A stretch of DNA of 64,000 nt from Pyrinomonadaceae bacterium (GTDB lineage Bacteria; Acidobacteriota; Blastocatellia; Pyrinomonadales; Pyrinomonadaceae): NCBI GenBank assembly GCA_036745095.1, contig DAIOGT010000001.1, positions 26,201 through 90,200 on the forward strand, written 5' to 3'. The translations under genes were made by a program, and so were the position numbers. A model generated the notes under the pieces. That model ran no database searches. It was given only the letters and a program-made list of their open reading frames with translations, and was not told the origin of the DNA. This document shows, in pieces, positions 2,398 through 16,634 of this stretch. The first letter of the stretch is position 1, and every line of letters begins with the position of its first letter.

Positions 2398-3666
2398 ATG
2401 AGAATTAGTTCCATTGCCTGGGCGAACTTGAAACGGCGTAAGGGCAAGGCTGCGTTCCTGGTCGTAGGCATCAGCATTGGCATCGCCACGGTCGTTGCGC
2501 TGCTGACATTAAGCCGCTTGATCAGAGACGAGATCGGCGCCCAACTCGATCAATACGGCGCCAACATCATCGTCATGCCGCAGTCTAATAGCTTGTCACT
2601 CGATTACGGCGGCATCTCCGTCACCGGAGTCTCGCTTGATGTCAATCAACTAAAAAATGAAGACGCCAAGCGCGTGCTTGAAATCCCTTACCGCAATCGG
2701 ATCAGCGTGGTGGCGCCCAAGATTCTTGGCGTCTCTGATGTTGAAGGTCAACAGGTGCTTCTTGCTGGTGTCGATTTTCCGAGCGAACTGAGACTGAAAC
2801 GTTGGTGGCGGCTGGTTGGGCAGAAGCCTGAAGACGACGGAGACCTGCTGGTTGGATATGACGTGGCGAAACGTCTATCGCTCATTGAGCCGACTGCCGA
2901 CGGACAATCCCAAGCGGTCCCAGTCATGGAAATGTCCGACGTGACAGTCGACATCCGGCCCCATCATATCAACGTAGAGCAAAACAGGTTCAGGCTCGTG
3001 CGCGACCGTCTGCGGATTGCCAGCCGGGAGCATCGCGTAGCGGGAGTGATCACTCCAACGGGTGGAAGCGAGGACCAGATGATCTTCGGCTCGCTTCCTC
3101 ACTTCCAGACACTCTTAGGCAAGCCCGATCAGTTGAGCATGATCGAAGTCAGCGCGCTCTGCATCGGTTGTCCAGTGGAAGACATCGTCAACCAAATCAG
3201 CACGCAGCTTCCGAACGCGAAGGTTTCTGCCTTACAGCAATCCGTCCGAGCCCGAGCAGAGACGGTGGATCGTTTGACGCGTTTCGCTACCGCGGTTTCG
3301 GCGGTTGTGCTTTTGATCGGCGGGCTGATGGTTTTCACCACGATGATGGGATCGGTAGTCGAACGAACCAAAGAAATCGGCGTGTTGCGAGCCATCGGCC
3401 TCCGTAAGAGACAGATCATTAATGAGCTAATGATCGAGGTAGCCGCTATTAGCACGGTCGGCGGTTTGGTGGGTTGGATAGTGGGAATGCTGATCAGTTG
3501 GTTGATTTTGCCTTACTTCAGCCAATCGGGTCTAAAGCTGGAATTTGATCCGAAGATCGCGCTGGGCGCTGTTGGCGTTGCGCTTCTGATCGGCGCGGTT
3601 AGCAGCGTGTATCCGGCGATTCGAGCCTCACGGCTCGATCCGTCGGAAGCGGTTCGTTACGTGTGA
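2398..3666 (+). CDS. ABC transporter permease, FtsX/MacB type with a large periplasmic domain
   Basis: N-terminus IAWANLKRRKGKAAFLVVGISIGIA, a ~250-aa extracytoplasmic loop, then three C-terminal TMs ending RASRLDPSEAVRY (FtsX-family signature). Confidence 0.85.
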   Translation: MRISSIAWANLKRRKGKAAFLVVGISIGIATVVALLTLSRLIRDEIGAQLDQYGANIIVMPQSNSLSLDYGGISVTGVSLDVNQLKNEDAKRVLEIPYRNRISVVAPKILGVSDVEGQQVLLAGVDFPSELRLKRWWRLVGQKPEDDGDLLVGYDVAKRLSLIEPTADGQSQAVPVMEMSDVTVDIRPHHINVEQNRFRLVRDRLRIASREHRVAGVITPTGGSEDQMIFGSLPHFQTLLGKPDQLSMIEVSALCIGCPVEDIVNQISTQLPNAKVSALQQSVRARAETVDRLTRFATAVSAVVLLIGGLMVFTTMMGSVVERTKEIGVLRAIGLRKRQIINELMIEVAAISTVGGLVGWIVGMLISWLILPYFSQSGLKLEFDPKIALGAVGVALLIGAVSSVYPAIRASRLDPSEAVRYV

Positions 3667-3679
3667 AGGAGAGCGAACG

Positions 3680-4384
3680 ATGTCATTTGTAGTCATTAAG
3701 GATGTCGGCAAGGTTTATCAGCCCAATGGGATTGATTCGGCAGTCCGTGTGCTGGCGGACATCAACCTCGAAGTCAAAGAGGGTGAGTTCATTTCTCTAA
3801 TGGGCCCGTCTGGATCGGGCAAGAGCACGTTGCTAACCATCATGGGAGCAATGAATCGACCCAGCGAAGGTCGCGTCCTGGTTGACGACATTGATGTGTA
3901 CGAGTTGCCGGAGGAGCGGCGCGCAGATTTTCGGCTCGAGTATCTCGGCTTCGTTTTTCAGCAACATCATTTGATGCCATATCTCAACGCGCTTGAGAAC
4001 GTGATGCTGCCCATGGTGACGAGTAAGACCAGCGCCAAAGAGAAACGAAGTCGTGCGCTCGCCGTACTGCAAAGCGTTGGACTCGTGAGCAAAGCGGCAC
4101 GGCTTCCCAATCAGCTATCCGGCGGAGAACAAGGTCGTTTGGCAATTGCGCGAGCGCTCGTGAACGAGCCGCCACTCATTCTCGCGGACGAGCCGACGGG
4201 AACACTTGATACGGACACGGGACGAGAAATCATGGACGTCTTTCAGCAGCTTAATGCCGAAGGCCAGACGATATTCATGGTCACGCACAATCCCGACAAC
4301 GCGGCGGTGGCCCATCGGGTCGTGAATATCAGAGACGGCCGCATGTTTGATGAAAGTGAAGGGTGCTCAGTGAGCACCGAATAA
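3680..4384 (+). CDS. ABC transporter ATP-binding protein (MacB/LolD-like)
   Basis: Walker A GPSGSGKST, signature LSGGEQGRLAIARAL, Walker B LILADEPTG. Confidence 0.9.
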   Translation: MSFVVIKDVGKVYQPNGIDSAVRVLADINLEVKEGEFISLMGPSGSGKSTLLTIMGAMNRPSEGRVLVDDIDVYELPEERRADFRLEYLGFVFQQHHLMPYLNALENVMLPMVTSKTSAKEKRSRALAVLQSVGLVSKAARLPNQLSGGEQGRLAIARALVNEPPLILADEPTGTLDTDTGREIMDVFQQLNAEGQTIFMVTHNPDNAAVAHRVVNIRDGRMFDESEGCSVSTE

Positions 4385-4395
4385 GGAGAGGAATA

Positions 4396-5742
4396 GTGAA
4401 AGCGAAGCTAATCCAAAGAGTGCTTACCTACCTCGTGATCGCGATCTTGACGGGAAGCAGTGTTGTCGTGGCCCAACAGCCCAGCACAACAACTTCGGGC
4501 ACTGATGACACGGTTCGCGATCAGCAGACAGTTCCGCAGCGTACATCCGATGGGAGTGCCGGGAGTCCAGCGCTGCAACAGTTGATCGAGCAAGCACTGG
4601 AGAACAATCCAGAGATCAAGGCGATGCAGCGTCGCTTCGACATGATGCGGGCGCGTATTCCGCAAGCGAAAGCGCTCGACGAGCCCATGCTGAGCGTGGG
4701 TTACATGGGCGACATCGTTCCTTTCAAGGTTCAAAAAGGCGATCCATCGAGCGGACGCTCGATTTCAATCAGCCAGGATCTGCCCTATCCAGGCAAGCGA
4801 TCATTGAAAGGCAAGATTGCCAGCACGGACGCGGATGCGGAGTGGTGGAATTTCGAACAGACTCGGCGGAATGTCGTGGCTGAAGTGAAAGATGCCTACT
4901 TCGATCTCTACTACATCACCAAAGCAATCGGCGTGGTCAATAAGACCAAAACGCTGCTTGAGCAATTCACCAAAATCGCCGAAGTGCGATACGCCGTTGG
5001 CCGTGGGATTCAGCAGGACGTTCTCAAAGCCCAGGTTGAGTTCTCAAAGCTGATCGAGCAACAGACCGTGCTGGAGCAGCGTAAGCAGATCGCTGAAGCC
5101 CGGCTGAACAGCCTGCTATATCGCGAGTCAGATTCTCCATTGGGCGTTCCTGAGGAATTGAAGCCGCGCGATTTCCCTTACTCGCTGGCGCAACTCAATG
5201 AAACGGCGGTCGCTAACTATCCTGACCTGAAAGCTCAACGGCGTAAGATCGAAGGCGCGCAGTATTCGATTCAACTGGCGAAGAAAGACTTCTACCCGGA
5301 TTTCTCAGTAGGTTTCACCTACATCAACCGCCCTGCGATGCCGGAGATGTACGGCGTAAACGTCGGCGTCAAGCTGCCGGTTTACGTCTGGCAGAAGCAA
5401 CGCCCGGCGCTTACGGAAGCGACGGCCAGCTTCGAGGCCGAGAAACGAAGTTTGGAGAACAAGACGACGTTGCTGATGTTCAAGATCAGGGACAAGTACC
5501 TGGCGGAGACGACCGCTCAACGTCTGGTCAAGCTTTACAGCACAACGATCGTACCCCAGTCGTCGCTTTCGCTTGAGTCAGCCATTGCCGGATACGAAGT
5601 CGGCAAAGTTGATTTTCTAACGCTCCTGGACAATCTCGTGACGCTGCTCAACTACGAGCTTAGTTATTACGAGCAGCTCAGTAATGAGGAGAAGGCCGTC
5701 GCGGGATTGGAGCCTTTAGTAGGAGTCACGTTGAGACCATAA
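4396..5742 (+). CDS. cusC: TolC-family outer-membrane efflux protein (CusC/CzcC-like)
   Basis: GTG at 4396 follows AAGGAGAGG. Signal peptide ...SSVVVAQQ. The two-repeat OEP architecture is typical (NNPEIKAMQRRFD..., ANYPDLKAQRRKIEGA...). Confidence 0.8.
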   Translation: MKAKLIQRVLTYLVIAILTGSSVVVAQQPSTTTSGTDDTVRDQQTVPQRTSDGSAGSPALQQLIEQALENNPEIKAMQRRFDMMRARIPQAKALDEPMLSVGYMGDIVPFKVQKGDPSSGRSISISQDLPYPGKRSLKGKIASTDADAEWWNFEQTRRNVVAEVKDAYFDLYYITKAIGVVNKTKTLLEQFTKIAEVRYAVGRGIQQDVLKAQVEFSKLIEQQTVLEQRKQIAEARLNSLLYRESDSPLGVPEELKPRDFPYSLAQLNETAVANYPDLKAQRRKIEGAQYSIQLAKKDFYPDFSVGFTYINRPAMPEMYGVNVGVKLPVYVWQKQRPALTEATASFEAEKRSLENKTTLLMFKIRDKYLAETTAQRLVKLYSTTIVPQSSLSLESAIAGYEVGKVDFLTLLDNLVTLLNYELSYYEQLSNEEKAVAGLEPLVGVTLRP

Positions 5743-7383: not shown

Positions 7384-10300
7384 ATGATTAACAAAATCAT
7401 TGAAATCTGTGCCCACAACAAGTTCATGGTCCTGCTCATAGTCGGGGTGTTGACGCTTGCCGGGTTGTGGTCCATCAAGAACATTTCGCTCGATGCGCTT
7501 CCTGACCTCTCAGATACGCAGGTGATCATCTATTCGCGTTGGGATCGGAGTCCGGACATCATGGAGGACCAGGTTACCTACCCGATCATCTCTTCGCTGC
7601 TCGGTGTACCCAACGTAAAGGACATTCGTGGCTTTTCGGACTTCGGCTACTCCTACGTCTACATCATCTTCGAAGATGGCACCGACATCTATTGGGCCCG
7701 TTCACGCACGCTTGAGTATTTGAGCAATATCCTGCCGCGTTTGCCAGAGGGCGTAAACGTCGAGCTTGCCCGCGATGAGACTGCGGTTGGCTGGGTTTAT
7801 GAGTACGCGCTGGTTGATAAGACCGGACAAAACAATTTGGCGCAACTGCGAAGCTTCCAGGATTGGCACATGCGGTACGCCTTGCAGGCTGTGCCCGGAG
7901 TAGCCGAGGTCGCTCCGCTGGGAGGATTTGTCAAGCAATACCAGGTCAATGTCGATCCGAATGCGTTGCTCGCCTACGAGATTCCGATTGAACGCGTGGT
8001 CGAAGCTGTGCGTCAGGGGAACAGCGATGTGGGAGGCCGCCTGATCGAGTTTTCTGGTCGCGAGTACATGGTTCGTGGGCGTGGTTATATAAAGAAAGTC
8101 TCTGACGTGGAAAACATCGTTGTCGGGACCAGCAAGCAGGGCGGCACGCCTATTCTCGTCAGTAATCTCGGAACAGTAACGCTCGGTCCTGACATTCGGC
8201 GGGGCTTGGCTGATCTGGACGGAGAAGGAGATGTCGTCGGCGGAATTGTCATCATGCGTTATGGCGAGAACGCCGAGAAGGTCATCCAACGAGTACGGAC
8301 GAAATTAGATGAACTTAAGCCCTCATTGCCAAAAGGGGTCGAAATCGTCACGACTTATGATCGCGCAGAACTTATAGAGCGTGCGGTCGAAACGCTCAAA
8401 GGCACGCTTATAGAGGAACTGATCATCGTCAGTCTCATCATTATGATTTTCCTCTGGCACATCCCGTCCGCGATCGTGCCGATCATTACCATCCCGATTA
8501 CGATCATCATCTCATTCATTCCTATGTACTGGATGGGAATTACTGCGAACATCATGAGCCTCGGCGGAATCGCTATCGCTATTGGGGCGATGATTGATGC
8601 GGCGATTGTCGTTGTCGAGCAAACACACAAGAAACTCGAACACTGGGATGCCGAGGGCCGACCCGGCAGCTATAAAGATGTTGTCATTACTGCGGTAAAG
8701 GAAGTTGGCGGTCCAAGCTTCTTTGCGCTCCTCGTGATTGCAGTGGCGTTCATTCCCGTCTTCACGCTTGAGGGTCAGGAGGGAAGGCTCTTCAAGCCCC
8801 TCGCCTATACGAAGAACTTCTCCATGGCGATTGCCGCCTTCCTGGCAATCACACTCGACCCCGCGATTCGACTGCTCTTCACGCACATGGATCCTTATAA
8901 GTTCAGGCCAAAGTTCCTCGCAAAGATCACCAATGCGGTGCTGGTTGGCAAGATTCACAGCGAGGAAACCCATCCCATTAGCCGGCCGCTGATGAAGATC
9001 TATCACCCGGTTTGCGAGTTTGTATTACGGCACACATGGGCAGTCATCATTCTGGCAGTGCTGGCAGTTGTTTTGACCATTCCGATCTTCAATCGGCTTG
9101 GCTCAGAGTTCATGCCGCCCTTGAACGAGGGAACGCTGCTTTACATGCCGACGACACTACCGGGTATTTCAGTCACTCAAACCGAGCGTTTGCTCCAGGT
9201 AATGGATAAGAAGCTAAAGAGCTTCCCGGAGGTCGAGCGTGTGTTTGGCAAGGCTGGGCGAGCGGAAACTGCGACGGACCCGGCGCCATTCTCGATGATG
9301 GAGACAGTAATCGAACTCAAACCTGAATCCGAATGGCCCAAAGTACCGCGTTGGTATTCATCCTGGGCGCCAAATTGGGTGCAGGGAATTCTGCGCCGCG
9401 CGTGGCCGGATCATAAGAGCACGGATGAACTCATTTATGGGCCCGGCGGAATGAACGAAGCATTACAACTGCCCGGAGTCTCAAACGCCTGGACCATGCC
9501 CATCAAAGCGCGAATTGACATGTTGACGACGGGCGTGCGCACCCCGGTGGGCATAAAGATTATGGGCGCCGACCTGGCCGAGGTGCAGAAGCTCGGCGAG
9601 CACATTGAGATGTCACTAAAGGACGTACCTGGCACCAAGAGCGTATTTGCCGAACGCGCGGCTGGTGGGTATTTCCTCGATTTCACACTCAAGCGCGAGG
9701 CGCTGGCGCGTTATGGCCTCACTGTCGATCAGGCCAATGCCGTGGTGATGTCGGCAGTCGGGGGTGAGAATGTCACCACGACGGTCGAAGGTCGAGAGCG
9801 TTATCCGGTCAATGTTCGTTACTTGAGGGATTATCGCAGCGATCCGGACAAACTATCGCGAACTTTTGTGATGGCTCCGAACGGCACTCAGATTCCTCTG
9901 GGCCAGATTGCAGAAATCCAACTGGTCACTGGGCCAGCAATGATTCGCGATGAGAATGGTCGGCTTTCCGCGTACGTTACCGTCGACTTCGATACTTCCA
10001 AGCGAGACATTGGTAGCTATGTCGCGGATGCCAAGAAGGTGCTGCGTGAGAAAGTGCAGCTGCCTGCAGGCTATCAACTGATCTGGAGTGGCCAATTTGA
10101 AAGCATGGAACGGGTAAAGGCCCGGCTACTAATCGTCGTGCCAATCACGATCTTTCTCATTTTCATGTTGCTCTACTTTAATACTCGCTCAATTGCCAAA
10201 ACGCTAATTATTCTTCTGGCGGTTCCATTCTCTGCAATTGGAGCGATCTGGTTCCTCTACTTCCTCGACTACAACATGAGCATTGCCGTCTGGGTCGGCC

Positions 10301-10698
10301 TGATCGCGCTTATGGGTGTTGATGCCGAAACTGGCATGTTCATGTTGCTCTATCTCGATATCGCCTTTAAGGACGCGAGAGCTAAAGGCCGAATGAGGAA
10401 CTGGAACGACCTGAAAGAGGCGATTCTACACGGGGCAGTAAAGCGACTTCGTCCGAAGGTCATGACCGTCGGTGTGATGTTTACCGGACTGGTGCCAATC
10501 ATGTGGTCAACCGGCAGCGGAGCCGACGTTATGAAGCGCATCGCAGCTCCGATGATCGGCGGCATCTTCACTTCTTTCATTCTCGAGCTGGTGGTCTATC
10601 CGGCAATCTACGCGATCTGGAAGTGGCACTTCGATGTGAAGAAAAATCCTATGCCGCCGTTGATCCAACCAGAGCCGCAGCCGGCTGATTGGAGGTGA
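7384..10698 (+). CDS. cusA: CusA/CzcA-family heavy-metal RND efflux pump (copy 1)
   Basis: 1104 aa. N-terminus MINKIIE...DALPDLSDTQVII. ATDPAPFSMMETVIELKP and [24 protein letters not shown] are Cu/Ag-type (HME4-like) motifs. Confidence 0.95.
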   Translation: MINKIIEICAHNKFMVLLIVGVLTLAGLWSIKNISLDALPDLSDTQVIIYSRWDRSPDIMEDQVTYPIISSLLGVPNVKDIRGFSDFGYSYVYIIFEDGTDIYWARSRTLEYLSNILPRLPEGVNVELARDETAVGWVYEYALVDKTGQNNLAQLRSFQDWHMRYALQAVPGVAEVAPLGGFVKQYQVNVDPNALLAYEIPIERVVEAVRQGNSDVGGRLIEFSGREYMVRGRGYIKKVSDVENIVVGTSKQGGTPILVSNLGTVTLGPDIRRGLADLDGEGDVVGGIVIMRYGENAEKVIQRVRTKLDELKPSLPKGVEIVTTYDRAELIERAVETLKGTLIEELIIVSLIIMIFLWHIPSAIVPIITIPITIIISFIPMYWMGITANIMSLGGIAIAIGAMIDAAIVVVEQTHKKLEHWDAEGRPGSYKDVVITAVKEVGGPSFFALLVIAVAFIPVFTLEGQEGRLFKPLAYTKNFSMAIAAFLAITLDPAIRLLFTHMDPYKFRPKFLAKITNAVLVGKIHSEETHPISRPLMKIYHPVCEFVLRHTWAVIILAVLAVVLTIPIFNRLGSEFMPPLNEGTLLYMPTTLPGISVTQTERLLQVMDKKLKSFPEVERVFGKAGRAETATDPAPFSMMETVIELKPESEWPKVPRWYSSWAPNWVQGILRRAWPDHKSTDELIYGPGGMNEALQLPGVSNAWTMPIKARIDMLTTGVRTPVGIKIMGADLAEVQKLGEHIEMSLKDVPGTKSVFAERAAGGYFLDFTLKREALARYGLTVDQANAVVMSAVGGENVTTTVEGRERYPVNVRYLRDYRSDPDKLSRTFVMAPNGTQIPLGQIAEIQLVTGPAMIRDENGRLSAYVTVDFDTSKRDIGSYVADAKKVLREKVQLPAGYQLIWSGQFESMERVKARLLIVVPITIFLIFMLLYFNTRSIAKTLIILLAVPFSAIGAIWFLYFLDYNMSIAVWVGLIALMGVDAETGMFMLLYLDIAFKDARAKGRMRNWNDLKEAILHGAVKRLRPKVMTVGVMFTGLVPIMWSTGSGADVMKRIAAPMIGGIFTSFILELVVYPAIYAIWKWHFDVKKNPMPPLIQPEPQPADWR

Positions 10699-12443
10699 CT
10701 TTGATTAACGAATTAGCGCCAGCATTGTTTCTGTTCATAGCTGTACTCCTGATCTTTGGAAGTACAAGGGTGGCCCGTCATCGCGGCTTGCCTGAAGCTC
10801 TGGGTTGCGGAGTGGCGCTCTGCATCATCGCGATAGCTATCGGGTTGTCACCGCCGACTTGGCGGGCCGGATGGGCAGGTGGGCCAGGGGGCGATCGTCT
10901 GCTCACCTCTGCGCGAATTGTGGGAATCAGCGGAATGCTTTTCATCGCGGGAACGCGTTTCGATTTCGGTGGAACGGCGCGCCGCATCGGTTTGCTAGTG
11001 AAAGCGGTAATAGTCGCAGGGGTTCTGTTGGTTGTTGCGATGCTGCTGGCGAAATGGATCGGAATGGAGTCAATACCCACGCTCGTCGTCGCTGTTGCTG
11101 TACTCGCAAGTAGCCTGTGGATACCTGCCGAGTTAGCTCGTTTCAAGAAGAGCGAGAACGATGCTTTGCCTACTTGGCAAACAATGGCCTTGGCGTTCAC
11201 CGGATTTGCAGTCTCAGTTATTTACTTCTTTGACGTTTTGTCTATAACGAATCGCACCCAACTGAGCGTGTTCACCTACGTCATTATTGTTTTATTTGAA
11301 GTAGTAAAGCTGTTTGTTCTATTTGGGTTTGCCTATTTTATCTGCAGCAAGTTTCTTGCGCGGGCGCGAGGCCGTATTTCTACCACACGCACCACCATTG
11401 GCTTTGTCCTCATTAGCGTCCTTGTCTTTATACTGATCGCAATCACGACGAACCAGTTGGCAGCCTTCGCCTGGGCCTTCGTTGCGGGAGCGTTGTGGCA
11501 ACAAAGCGAGAGCGGAAGGAAATTTGGGGACGCCTATAGACCGCTGGCCTCCGCGATGTTGATGTCCCTGGCGTTCGCCCCACTGATGTTGCAAACCCAT
11601 GGTCGAGATTTCCGAGGTTTGGGGTTCTTAGCCCTGTTCGTTGTAATCGCAGTTTTCGCAAAAGGTTTTCTTGCCTGGTTCTTGACGCAATCCGGCTCAC
11701 CGCTCCCGACGAGGGGACGTTTGGCGATTTCACTGGCTTTTCCCGGAGAAATCGCAATCGGGATTTTGGGATTCGCAATCACTAGGTGGCCGATCGCCGG
11801 ATCGCCGTACTTCGCTGTTCTAGGCTACGCAATCATTTCAACAGTCCTGATACCGGTCATGTGGACCGAGACCGCAATTGTAAACAACGAGGGAGTTGCG
11901 AGAAGGAGGAGTGCTATGCAAAAGCACATCGGAAAAGTTTTAGCTGTGGCTGTGTTGTTGCTCATGGTGATTTCAGGAACCGCGATAACAAGTTCTGCTC
12001 AGCAGACGCCAAACGACCCTCCTAATCAGCAGATAGAGCTTGGGCGGGGCATGAGTGCAATGACGCCCGGTCTGATGGAGATTGGATCGAAGACGAAGCT
12101 GTTCCTCGTCTTCGGAGACAAACTTCAACTCTCAACCGAACAAAGGAAAGGTCTCGAGGATCTCTATGTCCGAATTCAGACTTATAGCTTCCAACGCGAG
12201 GCTGACCTCGACGTCGCAGACGCCGAGCTGAAGCGATTGCTGACGAGGGACACCGTCGATCTAGGCGCGGTTAAGGCAAAGATGAAGGAGATCGAGACGA
12301 TCCGAGTCGAAGTGAACATGAAGAAGATCGAGACGCTTTTGCAGGCAATCAATGCCCTGACGCACGAGCAACATACGCAAATCGTCCTGTTGGCTCGCGA
12401 TCTTGAGGAAGCCAGTAAACCGCGTGCGCCGATCTACCAATGA
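10689..12443 (+). CDS. multi-pass membrane protein (cation/H+ exchanger-like N-terminus) continuous in frame with a signal-peptide-bearing LTXXQ (Spy/CpxP/ZraP-like) periplasmic domain
   Basis: About 10 hydrophobic helices in aa 1-400. In-frame ATG at 11916 is preceded by AAGGAGG and followed by a signal peptide (KVLAVAVLLLMVISGTAITSSAQQ) and LSTEQ / LTHEQ motifs. There is no stop between the two parts. Confidence 0.5.
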   Translation: MEVTLINELAPALFLFIAVLLIFGSTRVARHRGLPEALGCGVALCIIAIAIGLSPPTWRAGWAGGPGGDRLLTSARIVGISGMLFIAGTRFDFGGTARRIGLLVKAVIVAGVLLVVAMLLAKWIGMESIPTLVVAVAVLASSLWIPAELARFKKSENDALPTWQTMALAFTGFAVSVIYFFDVLSITNRTQLSVFTYVIIVLFEVVKLFVLFGFAYFICSKFLARARGRISTTRTTIGFVLISVLVFILIAITTNQLAAFAWAFVAGALWQQSESGRKFGDAYRPLASAMLMSLAFAPLMLQTHGRDFRGLGFLALFVVIAVFAKGFLAWFLTQSGSPLPTRGRLAISLAFPGEIAIGILGFAITRWPIAGSPYFAVLGYAIISTVLIPVMWTETAIVNNEGVARRRSAMQKHIGKVLAVAVLLLMVISGTAITSSAQQTPNDPPNQQIELGRGMSAMTPGLMEIGSKTKLFLVFGDKLQLSTEQRKGLEDLYVRIQTYSFQREADLDVADAELKRLLTRDTVDLGAVKAKMKEIETIRVEVNMKKIETLLQAINALTHEQHTQIVLLARDLEEASKPRAPIYQ

Positions 12444-12466: not shown

Positions 12467-13027
12467 ATGGTTGACCACAATAATTCGACGGCGACTCAGG
12501 TTGCTGAGACCGTAAACAAGGTGACGAATGACGCACGGATGGAGCAGTTGCGGGCGACCGCTCGCAAACATCAAGTCTGTTACGAAGTTTGGCCAGAGCG
12601 GTCAGTTGCCGAAGGGCGCAAAATTCTGATCGGTTTTGAGTTGCAGCTCTGTGGAACAAACAGCCACATAGCCGCAAAAGGAGCGCATCAGCCGGTCCCT
12701 GGTTGTGAGTACTGCCAGAGCACTTACGAAGACCTGCGACAGATCGCTGAGTGGATACTGCCGCGAGAAGAACGACCTTCGCGCTATGAGATAGGCGGGT
12801 TCGATCGTTCTCTGCACATTGCTCCCCATAGTCGGCAGTTGCGAAACGAGGTTGTCGTCTCTATTCATATCATGCACCGGTCGGACTTTAATCGCGAAGT
12901 AGATGACTGTGAAAACCGATGTCTAAAGGAGATGCGCCAGAGGCTCTTACAACTAGGCATTCGTCAGGACCTCTGGCGCGGGGAAAATCGGGTTGAGAAG
13001 GGAGGAAGCGATGAAACTGCTGGATAA
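12467..13027 (+). CDS. hypothetical protein
   Basis: ORF 12440..13027. ATG at 12467 follows GAGGAGG; ATG at 12440 overlaps the upstream stop (ATGA). I recognise no motif (contains PGCEYC). Confidence 0.4.
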   Translation: MVDHNNSTATQVAETVNKVTNDARMEQLRATARKHQVCYEVWPERSVAEGRKILIGFELQLCGTNSHIAAKGAHQPVPGCEYCQSTYEDLRQIAEWILPREERPSRYEIGGFDRSLHIAPHSRQLRNEVVVSIHIMHRSDFNREVDDCENRCLKEMRQRLLQLGIRQDLWRGENRVEKGGSDETAG

Positions 13028-13592
13028 GTTAGAAGCACTGTTCGTCAATCAACCGGAGAGGAAAAAGAACGAGCACCCAAGCTTGTTTGATCGGTTGCGA
13101 AACGTCTTCTTTGCCGCCGAATTTCTCAAAAAAGACCTGCAAGGCATTCCACCATTCTGCCGTTGTGAGGACGCGATTTCTCATTTGGAAGGCCGTTGTA
13201 GCTGTACCAAACGTCCTGCTGGTTCGCAAGCCGAAGAGGTTAGCGCGAAGGGTTGCCTGGCACATCTTGAAACTCTTCGTTTGGATGTCAGATCGCTGCG
13301 CCAATCGCTGCAGCGCCACAGAAACGAGCTGCGGCCCGAAGAAAAAACCGAAGAGGTAAGGCGTGAGCTCTCTCTGATCGAGAATTTTGCGGAAAACATG
13401 GGGTCCATTGTCGAGGAGATCAGGAATCACGCTTCGGAGTGGGAACTTAGCTGCTCCAACGACGCACTCCAGCGATTGAAGGAAAGCAGTTCTGAGTTGG
13501 AAAAATATTCGACGGAGTTCTTCTGGTCTCTGTTGAAGCAGGATCGGGGAGAGCAGATAAACAGTTCGTCGAAAGTCAAGCGGGTTTCATGA
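13011..13592 (+). CDS. Cys/His-rich helical protein, divergent paralog 2 of 3
   Basis: ATG at 13011 follows GAAGGGAGGA. Motif FCRCEDAISHLEGRCSC, then GCLAHLETLRLDV (compare NCSAIIARLRTDL) and LSCSNDAL (compare MNCSITQM). Confidence 0.55.
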   Translation: MKLLDKLEALFVNQPERKKNEHPSLFDRLRNVFFAAEFLKKDLQGIPPFCRCEDAISHLEGRCSCTKRPAGSQAEEVSAKGCLAHLETLRLDVRSLRQSLQRHRNELRPEEKTEEVRRELSLIENFAENMGSIVEEIRNHASEWELSCSNDALQRLKESSSELEKYSTEFFWSLLKQDRGEQINSSSKVKRVS

Positions 13593-13638
13593 GCCGAGAG
13601 AAGGAATAATGGCTTACCGACACGGAAAGGGAAATGAG

Positions 13639-14370
13639 ATGAGTATTAAGTTCGCAATGCGCCTAGCCGTCTGGAGCGCATGTTTTGTGCTTTTGTTTGC
13701 GCTACGGGTCAACGCGCAGGAGTTCACATACAAAGTCGAACAGGATCGTTTGATTGGCCATCGTGATGGCGAGCTGATCATTTCAGATAAAGCTGTCGAG
13801 TACCGCGCGAAGAGAAACAAGGAAAGCCGCGCGTGGACGTACACAGATATCAGACTCCTGGAAATCCTGTCGCCGACGCGCGTGCGCATCTGGACGTACA
13901 AAGACCGCAAGCTGCGGCTGGGCCGCGATCAAAGTCTGACGCTCAAGATTGTCGAAGGACAAATCGATCAGAAAGTCAGCGACTTCTTACGGGAGCGCAT
14001 CGCGCGTCCGTTCGTTACCTCTTTCGCTGAGGAAGATCAAAACGCCCTGGCGCAAATACCGGTGAAGCACTCTCATCGTCTCGGAGGATGCGAAGGACTG
14101 CTGAGGATTTATCCAGATAGATTGGTGTACGAATCTCAAACTGGACATGACTCGCGTAGTTGGCGTTGGACCGACATTCGGTCAGTTGGGCGCTCAGACC
14201 TTTATCGGTTTGATGTAGAGACGTTCGAGCCTCAGCTTGGCGCGTCAAGTCGCAGCTTCAATTTCACTCTGAAAGAACGAATGGCGGACAAGACTTATGA
14301 CTTGATCTGGAGTCGCGTCTATCGCCCGACTCCGCTGATCAGGGCGGGTGAGGGAGTGACCGGAAAGTAG
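13639..14370 (+). CDS. secreted protein with an internal tandem duplication
   Basis: Signal peptide [28 protein letters not shown]. Two ~100-aa repeats share G.L.I......Y......SR[AS]W.[YW]TDIR. Confidence 0.5.
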
Positions 14371-14393: not shown

Positions 14394-16154
14394 GTGGCAG
14401 AAGTCAAGACAAGCGGGCGATCGGATTACGCACTGGCCCAAGCGGCCGGAAAGGGCGATATGCACGCCTTTGAAGAACTCTATCTGCGCCACAACCGTCG
14501 CGTGTATTCGCTCTGCTTGCGGATGACGAGAAATGGTACCGATGCTGAGGACCTCGCACAGGAAGTCTTTATCCAGCTCTCTCGCAAGATCGGAAGCTTT
14601 CGCGGCCAAGCGGCCTTCACAACCTGGCTGCATCGGCTGACGGTCAATCAGGTGCTCATGCACTTTCGCAAACGCGGCGTGCGCTTGGAACACACGACCG
14701 AGGAGGGCGAGACACCCGTACAAATCGTCAAAGGGACTGAGAATCATCGGACGATGCCGATCATCGATCGCATTGCGCTGGACGATGCAATCGCGCAACT
14801 GCCGCCGGGCTATCGACTGGTCTTCACGCTGCACGATATCGAAGGGCATGAGCACGCAGAGATTGCGAGGATGCTGGGCCGCACAGTGGGAACCTCGAAG
14901 TCGCAACTGCATAAAGCGCGAATGAAATTACGTTCTTTGTTAAAGCGAAGAGACAAGCCAGGGTTGCCTGGAGATGATGGTGGCAATGGTTCCCTAAAGG
15001 AAATTATGCAGAAGAAAACAACTACGAGAGCGATCACCCAAGTTACGCCAGTAGGCCTTCAAAGCCAACCGGCTCCGCATTGGAGAAATGTCAGTTGGCA
15101 TTTCTCGCTGCTACTTGGCGCACTGTTGTTCCTTACTTTGAGCGCGCAGGGACAGACAGTCGAGTCAAACATTCCAAAGAGCACGACTGCAGACCAAACA
15201 CAAGCGGTAAACATTGAGCACTACCTGGATCGATTGATTTCCAGTGCAGTCATTGCAGGCGACGCAGCCGATGTAATCAAAGAGGCGGACAGTTATCGCA
15301 CTCAGGCAACCCAGAAATTGAAGAACGGGCGTCGCGACGAAGCACGCGCGTTGTTCAGGCAAGCGGGCGAGGTAATTGCAGCCGCCGCCCCCGATGGAGA
15401 CATTAAACGAGAAGATCCTCTACTGCGTGATTATCTGCGAGAGATCACCAGAGAACTGGTTGCGCTCGACTCCGCGAACAACTCGCCGTCAGCCATGTCA
15501 ATTGAAGGAAGCTCTCTCACTGGGAATTACGCCGCGCAGCCACGCATCGCTGCTTTCCTTAGTTACTTTCAGGGCCGAGGAAGAACACGGCTGGAAATTG
15601 GACGAGCGCGCTTCGCTTTATACCAACCAATGATGACGCGAGTTTTCCGCGAGGAAGGTGTGCCCGAATGGTTGCTTGGAGTTGGCTTTGTAGAAAGCAC
15701 TTATAACTCGACAGCACATTCACCGAAAGAGGCCCATGGTATCTGGCAATTTATACCCGGCACAGGAGCGCGCTATGGACTTCGACGTACCGCGTGGACT
15801 GACGAGAGGAGCGATCCGGAAAAATCAACGCGGGCTGCTGCCCGGTATCTTCGTGATCTACACGCTTTGTTTGGCGATTGGCAGCTTGCTTTGGCGGCTT
15901 ACAACTGGGGTGAGGGTCGAGTCGCCAGAGTCATACGTCGGACTGGTATCCGCGACTTTTGGACCATGGCCGAACGGGGTCTGATGCCGCAAGAGACAGC
16001 CAACTATGTGCCCTCGGTACTCGCAGCTTCGCAACTGTTGCTCGGGGGCAATAAAACAGTCGTTGAGGTAAAACCAGCATCAGGATTTTCCTCCGGTCGC
16101 GGTGCTGAAGCTGAACTGAAGCAGGGAAATGATCGCGGCAGGCCGGCGCACTGA
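14394..16154 (+). CDS. ECF sigma-70 factor continuous in frame with a TM segment and an MltD-like lytic transglycosylase (SLT) domain
   Basis: Sigma region 2 ([13 protein letters not shown]...[14 protein letters not shown]) and region 4 ([44 protein letters not shown]). Then [19 protein letters not shown]. Then [10 protein letters not shown]...[11 protein letters not shown]...[10 protein letters not shown] (SLT catalytic Glu motif). Confidence 0.65.
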
Positions 16155-16226: not shown

Positions 16227-16634
16227 ATGACAGTTAGTGATATCGCACGACGAAGCGGCGTTCCCGTACATGTCGTGCGCTACTACACACGAATCGGGCT
16301 GCTTAAGCCTTCGCGTAATCCGCGTAATGGGTACAAACAATACGAGGACTCCGATCTTTCGCGGCTGCGATTTATCCGGCAGGCCAAGAGTCTGGGGTAC
16401 AAACTCGATGAGATCGACCGCATTTTTCGAGAAAGCAGCAGGGGAAAGTCACCGTGTCCGATGGTTCGCTGCATCATCGGAAATCGGATTGAAGAGAATA
16501 GACTCAGGTTGAAGGAACTGGCGGCGCTGCAAAGACGAATGGAGCGAGCGCTGGCTAAATGGGCAAAACTGCCCGACGGTAAGCCCGATGGCCACACAGT
16601 TTGCTATCTCATTGAGTCTACGGCCGGCATGTGA
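16227..16634 (+). CDS. MerR-family transcriptional regulator (heavy-metal-responsive type likely)
   Basis: N-terminal wHTH MTVSDIARRSGVPVHVVRYYTRIGLL, coiled-coil dimerisation helix, and Cys residues (SPCPMVRC, TVCY) in the effector region. Confidence 0.85.
   Translation: MTVSDIARRSGVPVHVVRYYTRIGLLKPSRNPRNGYKQYEDSDLSRLRFIRQAKSLGYKLDEIDRIFRESSRGKSPCPMVRCIIGNRIEENRLRLKELAALQRRMERALAKWAKLPDGKPDGHTVCYLIESTAGM

Follow-up and report, generated by a model that had tools for sequence, protein, structure and literature searches.

Our analysis of a 64,000-nucleotide (nt) stretch of DNA from a Pyrinomonadaceae bacterium (contig DAIOGT010000001.1 of assembly GCA_036745095.1; hereafter, the window) revealed a gene, here called sigma::SLT, in which an extracytoplasmic function (ECF) sigma factor continues in one frame into a secreted lytic transglycosylase (SLT) of the MltD type. 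The fusion, which occurs in a group of soil Acidobacteria, is real, it originated once, out of two separate genes, both of its halves are constrained, the signal-peptide features of the SLT are unchanged, and the gene is the sole copy of this SLT in the genome. We regard the chances as about even that it is a genuine, selected fusion which acts as a polyprotein and whose sigma factor is released after export; rather than serving as a wall sensor, the sigma factor is probably synthesised at the membrane and freed during export. The parts of the gene are as follows.

14394..16154, plus strand: whole sigma::SLT open reading frame (ORF), 586 amino acids (aa), GTG start and TGA stop, no stop codon between the domains
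14478..14678, plus strand: ECF sigma region 2, aa 29-95 (Pfam PF04542, Sigma70_r2, E 8e-19), with confident AlphaFold2 (AF2) helices
14775..14933, plus strand: ECF sigma region 4, aa 128-180 (Pfam PF08281, Sigma70_r4_2, over aa 128-179, E 5e-18)
14958..15101, plus strand: linker, aa 189-236, predicted to be disordered; about 16 aa of new bridge, then the ancestral cytoplasmic N-tail of the SLT
14983..14992, plus strand: conserved 10-mer GGCAATGGTT, the frame-change marker of the fusion
14996..15008, plus strand: AAAGGA (14996-15001) and in-frame ATG (15006-15008, codon 205), the ancestral SLT start and a possible internal start today
15102..15152, plus strand: signal-peptide-like segment with h-region F237-A251 (15 aa), c-region A251-Q252-G253 and a predicted signal peptidase I cut before Q254
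15192..15473, plus strand: periplasmic helical N-domain, aa 267-360 (AF2 helices 267-310, 314-330 and 342-360; dN/dS 0.33)
15540..16043, plus strand: MltD-type SLT catalytic domain, aa 383-550 (PF01464), with the catalytic E434 at nt 15693-15695 (dN/dS 0.10)

The preliminary description of this DNA, made from its letters alone, had proposed an uninterrupted 586-aa sigma/SLT frame, and the ORF, the Pfam matches and the conservation of the fusion in 23 clusters bore this out; the features that it had quoted, namely, a hydrophobic segment (aa 235-253), the motifs VESTYN, GIWQF and AAYNWG, the AAAGGA and the ATG at 15006, were all present. In the sigma half, PF04542, PF08281 and PF04545 were the only Pfam sigma matches, so that this half consists of σ2 and σ4 without σ3 or σ1.1, as in ECF (group 4) sigma factors. 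It scored 101 bits against the NCBIfam model TIGR02937 (sigma70-ECF; cut-off, 42.9), and the nearest NCBIfam sigma models, PRK11922, SigM and SigE, all remained under their equivalog cut-offs. By fold, the sigma half matched AlgU, SigE, SigW and SigH. The Pfam SLT match covered aa 423-524 of the 586-aa protein (E 7e-25), and its motifs are intact, with the catalytic Glu in an E-S motif (VE434STYN), GxxQ (GIWQF) and AYNxG (AAYNWG). The best matches of the SLT were the Pseudomonas aeruginosa MltD structures PDB 8rhe and 8rhf (E 1e-31 by sequence, 38-41% identity by fold), and the MltD model PRK10783 aligned with the catalytic part alone (model positions 117-252 of 457; 105 bits versus the equivalog cut-off of 508 bits). 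The helical N-domain (aa 267-360) had no match to a Pfam family.

The linker contained no FecR, zf-HC2/ZAS or RskA anti-sigma domain by Pfam and NCBIfam and no Cys/His motif, and its N-tail is homologous to the N-tails of stand-alone SLTs. In the AF2 model of the 586-aa protein, σ2, σ4 and the SLT domain were confident, the linker had a pLDDT of about 40, and a short helix covered the hydrophobic segment; the domains were strung out like beads, and the extension was not predicted to touch σ2 or σ4. Two candidate interpretations of the linker were rejected. A match of aa 190-229 through stop codons in G009 and G003:C13, taken at first for a linker homologue, was judged spurious, as an ordinary zf-HC2 anti-sigma gene lies there. 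The N-tail of the SLT was likewise not taken for a short anti-sigma domain, as it is also found on sigma-less SLTs (L013, L044, L046, L047 and L051) and is predicted to be disordered.

The genome is a metagenome-assembled genome (MAG) of 403 contigs and relatives carry two-gene forms, including L055, where only a single TAA separates two genes that lie in one frame, all of which could point to a spurious indel that joined two genes during assembly. Three observations make such an artefact barely conceivable. First, an index of public assemblies contains P0241, the exact 586-aa protein, in 51 blocks, which derive from different runs and pipelines, and the neighbours were unchanged in the 24 contigs with P0241 that were inspected (e.g., ENA ERZ27257050 and Logan SRR11108980). 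Second, there are 22 further fused clusters (90%-identity clusters), 67-82% identical and 563-645 aa long, with sources in NCBI, JGI, ENA and Logan. Third, the linkers of fused and split forms differ by a net length change of 23 nt and not by one base. The 586-aa sigma::SLT frame is thus genuine, and an artefact is excluded for practical purposes.

The surroundings of the fusion are also conserved. Its immediate neighbours in the window are the following.

13609..14370, plus strand: upstream 253-aa secreted protein of no known family; in fused, split and sigma-less loci alike, its gene is always the one next to the SLT gene on the 5′ side
16227..16634, plus strand: MerR-family regulator (Pfam), directly downstream; also found after the split forms L054-L057

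As the preliminary description had stated, no anti-sigma gene follows: the next gene is that for the MerR-family regulator. Loci L015-L019, L050 and L043 share one gene order, consisting of an RND pump, an exchanger-like membrane protein, two to three small unknowns, a secreted unknown of about 245 aa, sigma::SLT, VWA genes and cytochrome/Rieske genes. A scan for sigma-70 promoters and terminators around sigma::SLT gave nothing above shuffled controls, which fits an internal operon position. As a separate observation, the genes at 12993-13592 and 13609-14370 (199 and 253 aa; no Pfam family) correspond to one gene of 437-439 aa in G003 (L002) and L013.

The steps that led to the fusion can be followed in its relatives. 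A search with the sigma part alone yielded four clusters (P0121-P0124) of 200-209-aa sigma factors that belong to the SLT-linked clade. In the two-gene loci L054-L057, an intact sigma gene ending in ...GLIAAMVW-stop is directly followed by the SLT gene. The two genes overlap in L054, while in L055-L057 they lie in the same frame across an 8-nt gap and are separated by TAA alone; on the P0124 contig, the stop codon of the sigma gene overlaps the start codon of the SLT gene. In the split forms, the codons of the conserved 10-mer GGCAATGGTT are GCA-ATG-GTT, giving A-M-V, followed by W and a stop; in the window they are GGC-AAT-GGT-T, giving G-N-G-S. Between this 10-mer and the end of σ4, every fused DNA has the same net gap of 23 nt; the exact boundaries of the indel are uncertain due to diverged flanks, and the frame change is directly readable.

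In a sigma tree rooted with other families, the SLT-linked sigmas formed one clade (100/92) beside two types of sigma paralogue, A and B. All 23 fused forms fell into one clade (100/99) together with P0121 and P0122, and the split forms P0123 and P0124 were basal. Because of this arrangement, the two-gene state is considered ancestral, and the fusion to have arisen once or very few times. The possibility raised in the preliminary description, that these are two genes and the sigma stop codon was lost, therefore holds as evolutionary history, in view of L054-L057 and the basal split forms, and fails as a sequencing error; the comparison of orthologues gave 23 fused clusters versus four split ones, and a consistent stop codon after the sigma was not seen. 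Origins were counted on the sigma tree and not on an SLT-domain tree of 116 homologues, which was poorly resolved; the fused forms were scattered in the latter, and its well-supported branches force at least four changes, which reflect partly truncation by gene callers and partly real loss of the sigma. Both states still occur side by side: the split form (P0122 locus) and the exact fused form of the window were found on different contigs of one metagenome sample, ENA ERZ27257050 (L056 and L058), and hence coexist in one community.

The genome carries three paralogues of the fused sigma: type A, 79% identical (on contig C27, followed by a zf-HC2 anti-sigma); type B, 78% identical (C40); and a 65% identical copy (C39). 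The type-A operon comprises a stand-alone 192-aa sigma (G000:C27:3622-4200) and the anti-sigma (2780-3466). The region 2.3/2.4 helix and the region 4.2 recognition helix are identical between the fused sigma and the type-A paralogue, and the type-A sigma is the probable parent of the fused one. As for the SLT, hundreds of stand-alone orthologues exist (68-83% identity, 330-450 aa). Sigma-less SLT loci in the same synteny, with the SLT gene directly after the 245-aa gene, comprise L002 (from a genome of the same genus), L013, L014, L044-L049 and L051; seven of these loci come from MAGs that GTDB labels as Pyrinomonadaceae or Blastocatellia. When 24 other species of the genus were examined, the fusion was found in none and this SLT in one, so that the locus belongs to a sporadic island. 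As the genome has no second copy of this SLT, a working periplasmic enzyme must come from the sigma::SLT gene.

Closer inspection of the hydrophobic segment revealed an uncharged stretch of 15 residues, F237-A251, which is preceded by R-N-V-S-W and followed by a small-x-small site, A-Q-G|Q. This small-x-small|Q site is kept in all 23 fused forms and in all 85 scorable unfused orthologues, and the median length of the uncharged stretch is 15 residues in both sets (range, 13-17 in fused and 11-19 in unfused forms). The call of a signal peptide was a heuristic one, and the segment has each of the features considered, namely, a positive n-region, an h-region of about 7-15 residues and small residues at -3 and -1. 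Judged by these features, the predicted transmembrane helix is the cleavable Sec signal peptide of the SLT itself, which has not drifted since the fusion, and not a stable membrane anchor. With an ordinary signal peptide and a kept cleavage site, the periplasmic domain is more likely to be cut off than to be retained as a tethered sensor.

This bears directly on the idea, put forward in the preliminary description, of a direct cell-wall-sensing device, for which we found nothing specific. According to such a model, sigma::SLT would be a one-component envelope sensor, an intact type II membrane protein whose SLT domain binds or cuts peptidoglycan and in which a wall signal triggers regulated proteolysis that frees the sigma. 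The layout of sigma, membrane segment and periplasmic domain with no anti-sigma gene would suit this role, and there are precedents in IutY and in ECF52, ECF48 and ECF53, which have membrane-spanning C-terminal extensions (PMC8999054). Moreover, RsiV and RsiP are cut by signal peptidase only after ligand binding (PMC4183432, PMC6066255, PMC8844934); the sensor model would accommodate a variant in which, as in RsiV, a ligand controls the access of signal peptidase, and the helical N-domain (aa 267-360), a domain of no known function, adjoins the cut site. However, the hydrophobic stretch has not been lengthened to a true transmembrane helix and has the median length seen in secreted orthologues, the cleavage-site rule is fully kept, and most relatives have this SLT as an ordinary secreted enzyme. 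In addition, the linker is unconserved and lacks an anti-sigma domain or zinc motif, and the sigma was repeatedly deleted with the SLT retained, which implies that the primary role of the SLT is not sensing for the sigma. A wall sensor is therefore decidedly unlikely.

To estimate selection, ratios of nonsynonymous to synonymous substitutions (dN/dS) were calculated by NG86 over five fused genes. The values were 0.09 for the sigma, 0.10 for the SLT catalytic domain and 0.33 for the periplasmic helical N-domain; both sigma and SLT are thus under strong purifying selection. The linker shares only about 33% amino acid identity among fused homologues, and its indels are all in frame. Since no stop codon follows σ4, the sigma can be translated as the fusion alone, yet its dN/dS is 0.09, which argues that the sigma is functional within the fusion. 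The locus has also decayed. In three independent cases (L020, L021 and P0025), most of the sigma was deleted and recognisable remnants were left, and L022 carries one frameshift, inside region 4.2. The SLT of the sigma-deleted L020 begins precisely at the counterpart of the window's ATG at 15006.

These variants raise the question of whether the fusion might be a tolerated by-product of operon compaction. The fusion would then be near neutral, the SLT would be made mainly from an internal start, the full-length protein would be a minor or poorly defined species, and the sigma, if it works at all, would be tethered or released unspecifically. The SD (Shine-Dalgarno)-like AAAGGA and ATG at the ancestral SLT start, the ATG used by L020 after loss of its sigma, speak for such an origin, as does the existence of split, deleted and frameshifted variants. 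The same operon also contains a second stop-less junction (10689-12443) that co-occurs with the sigma::SLT fusion, and distant relatives fuse an exchanger-like protein to the same SLT. On the other hand, the low dN/dS of a sigma that is translatable as the fusion alone holds across lineages down to 67% identity, and the in-frame character of all linker indels among fused forms is difficult to reconcile with neutrality. Furthermore, the positions of the internal Met and SD are not conserved across fused homologues, and P0020 has no Met before the h-region. We consider a by-product of this kind somewhat unlikely.

The second junction deserves a description of its own. At 10689-12443, an exchanger-like multi-pass membrane protein continues into an LTXXQ/Metal_resist periplasmic protein (PF13801, aa 419-563). 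Its state follows that of sigma::SLT: both are fused in L015, L017 and L019, and the junction is split in L055, L013 and L014, which have sigma::SLT in split form or not at all. Moreover, in P0251, P0253 and P0322 (50%-identity representatives of 729-752 aa from distant lineages), the same exchanger-like protein is fused directly to this SLT family via a signal-peptide-like segment in which an A-x-A-type site is kept. Fusions at the signal peptide of this SLT have hence involved two or more different upstream partners.

The polyprotein reading would account for these data by the following sequence of events. A further copy of the main envelope-stress ECF sigma of the lineage would have entered the end of a copper-efflux (cus-type) operon, between the gene for the secreted protein and the MltD-type SLT gene, and would at first have been a separate, translationally coupled gene. 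A net loss of 23 nt then carried the sigma frame beyond its own stop codon into the SLT frame, yielding a product that consists, in order, of the cytoplasmic sigma, the disordered linker, the cleavable signal peptide of the SLT and the mature SLT. The internal signal peptide would target the nascent chain to the Sec machinery, the SLT domain would be exported, and signal peptidase I would cut after A-Q-G253 and free the SLT enzyme. The sigma would stay on the cytoplasmic face, anchored by the h-region of about 15 residues and with no periplasmic stub, until a site-2 protease or a signal-peptide peptidase clears the h-region stub and leaves the sigma free to bind RNA polymerase. Such a released sigma would feed the regulon of its paralogue whenever the copper-island operon is expressed and export proceeds, with no dedicated anti-sigma. 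Since its region 2.4 and 4.2 helices match those of the type-A sigma exactly, it would probably drive the same regulon while bypassing the anti-sigma.

Each of the presumed processing steps has a precedent. The site-1 cut of RsiV and RsiP is made by signal peptidase (PMC4183432, PMC6066255, PMC8844934), RseP clears remnant signal peptides (PMC8144685, PMC10470546), and the IutY sigma/anti-sigma hybrid is freed by Prc and then by RseP (PMC8999054). Two genes for signal peptidase I are present in the genome, along with seven or more M50 loci; one of the latter, an M50+CBS gene 33 kb upstream on the same contig, is 70% identical to an orthologue that adjoins the SLT in L013 and L014. Candidate proteases are present but not specific. 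A bolder form of this reading, in which the sigma serves as the n-region of the signal peptide and is released one-for-one with each exported enzyme, via signal peptidase I and then a site-2 or signal-peptide protease, is possible and is proposed here tentatively. If true, this export-coupled activation would be an anti-sigma-free report that the operon is expressed and its product is across the membrane.

Several points weigh against the polyprotein reading. The processing, that is, cleavage after an n-region of 236 aa, is assumed from precedent. The internal start, AAAGGA-N4-ATG, could supply the SLT alone, in which case the conservation of the signal peptide is uninformative on the fate of the full-length protein. 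In this genome, the M50 gene lies 33 kb away, and M50 proteases are ubiquitous. Genome-wide pattern searches for a sigma-dependent promoter returned no convincing copy of the type-A TTGAAA..CGTGA block in the window. Finally, the fusion is labile, with three sigma deletions, one frameshift and persisting two-gene forms, and the fused state may thus confer little advantage.

ECF sigma factors are normally restrained by a separate anti-sigma, and a few carry the regulator as a fused extension. Sigma::SLT shares the hybrid layout of the latter (sigma, membrane segment and extracytoplasmic domain, conserved in 23 clusters) but has no anti-sigma domain; it is an ECF sigma with a membrane extension in which the extension is a secreted enzyme and not a regulator. 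The closest likeness is to IutY of Pseudomonas putida (ECF243; PMC8999054), which combines an N-terminal ECF sigma, one membrane segment and a periplasmic C-terminal part in one polypeptide. IutY is active only after proteolytic release, a step that we infer for sigma::SLT. However, the extension of IutY is a FecR-type anti-sigma/sensor of cell-surface signalling, whereas sigma::SLT has no anti-sigma domain and extends into a catalytically intact secreted enzyme that brings its own signal peptide. ECF52 (SCO4117), ECF48 and ECF53 of Actinobacteria similarly possess a long C-terminal extension with membrane helices; ECF52 has an extracytoplasmic carbohydrate-binding domain, and activation by processing was proposed (PMC8999054, PMC5826349). 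In contrast to sigma::SLT, which has no zinc motif, these groups have a zinc-finger (ZAS-like) segment ahead of the membrane helix as well as their own ECF-group cores, while the core of sigma::SLT is a recent paralogue, about 78% identical, of an ordinary anti-sigma-controlled sigma.

In the RsiV/SigV and RsiP/SigP systems, signal peptidase I cuts beside the membrane segment and a site-2 protease follows; the ligand of RsiV is a muramidase, so that a cell-wall theme is shared. Unlike in sigma::SLT, where the sigma itself would sit on the signal peptide and nothing suggests gating, the protein cut in these systems is a separate anti-sigma and the cut is ligand gated. The MltD proteins of P. 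aeruginosa and Escherichia coli (PDB 8rhe, 8rhf and 8rhi) have the same catalytic SLT domain with ES, GxWQF and AYNxG motifs, but sigma::SLT lacks a lipobox Cys and a LysM match and has the helical N-domain of about 95 aa and of unassigned family instead. The type-A sigma/zf-HC2 operon is alike in its sigma (79% identity, identical 2.4 and 4.2 helices) and differs in that the sigma is stand-alone and followed by a membrane ZAS-type anti-sigma. A polyprotein of a comparable kind is reportedly FbcH of Bradyrhizobium japonicum, said by Thöny-Meyer et al. in 1991 to be a cytochrome b/c1 polyprotein that yields two proteins via cleavage at an internal signal sequence. Both products of FbcH are membrane or periplasmic respiratory subunits and, unlike in sigma::SLT, neither is a transcription factor.

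The reviews of ECF classification and of noncanonical ECFs list membrane-helix extensions (ECF243 IutY, ECF48/52/53 and ECF263), none of them with a lytic transglycosylase or a catalytic secreted enzyme; the term "transglycosylase" is absent from both papers. A HMMER search of 1.84 billion representatives gave no other ECF+SLT protein among the top 150 matches, a weak negative because the fused clade itself is collapsed there under an SLT-only representative. If the sigma is freed by general secretion-processing enzymes, the arrangement would represent a simple, portable coupling of transcription to export and a useful part for synthetic biology. It might also serve as a model for how circuits of regulated intramembrane proteolysis arise from a single small deletion; the close relatives keep the states before and after this step as well as the decayed ones, and the mutational step is thus identified. 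Through this locus, moreover, a mobile copper-resistance island would be connected with an additional input into the envelope-stress regulon.

The unfused sigma paralogues gave several further observations. A block of about 45 nt, GGTAAGGCAACGACGCGC...AAGCGCCGCATCACA, precedes the type-A sigma (G000:C27, about 4290-4450, and L003-L012) and is nearly invariant in 12 genomes; the type-A upstream regions share the TTGAAA..CGTGA block, and the conserved block had no match in Rfam. Shortly before the start of the type-B sigma (G000:C40, about 9700-9760, and L023-L032), a sigma-54-like -24/-12 element, GTGGCC-N6-TTTGCT, is present in 11 of 11 aligned genomes, a sequence pattern which suggests that the type-B ECF sigma may be transcribed by RpoN. 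Finally, a 578-aa SLT-domain protein (G000:C27:6309-8045) is encoded about 2 kb from the type-A sigma/anti-sigma operon, and this proximity of sigma and SLT was found in at least nine genomes of the same genus.

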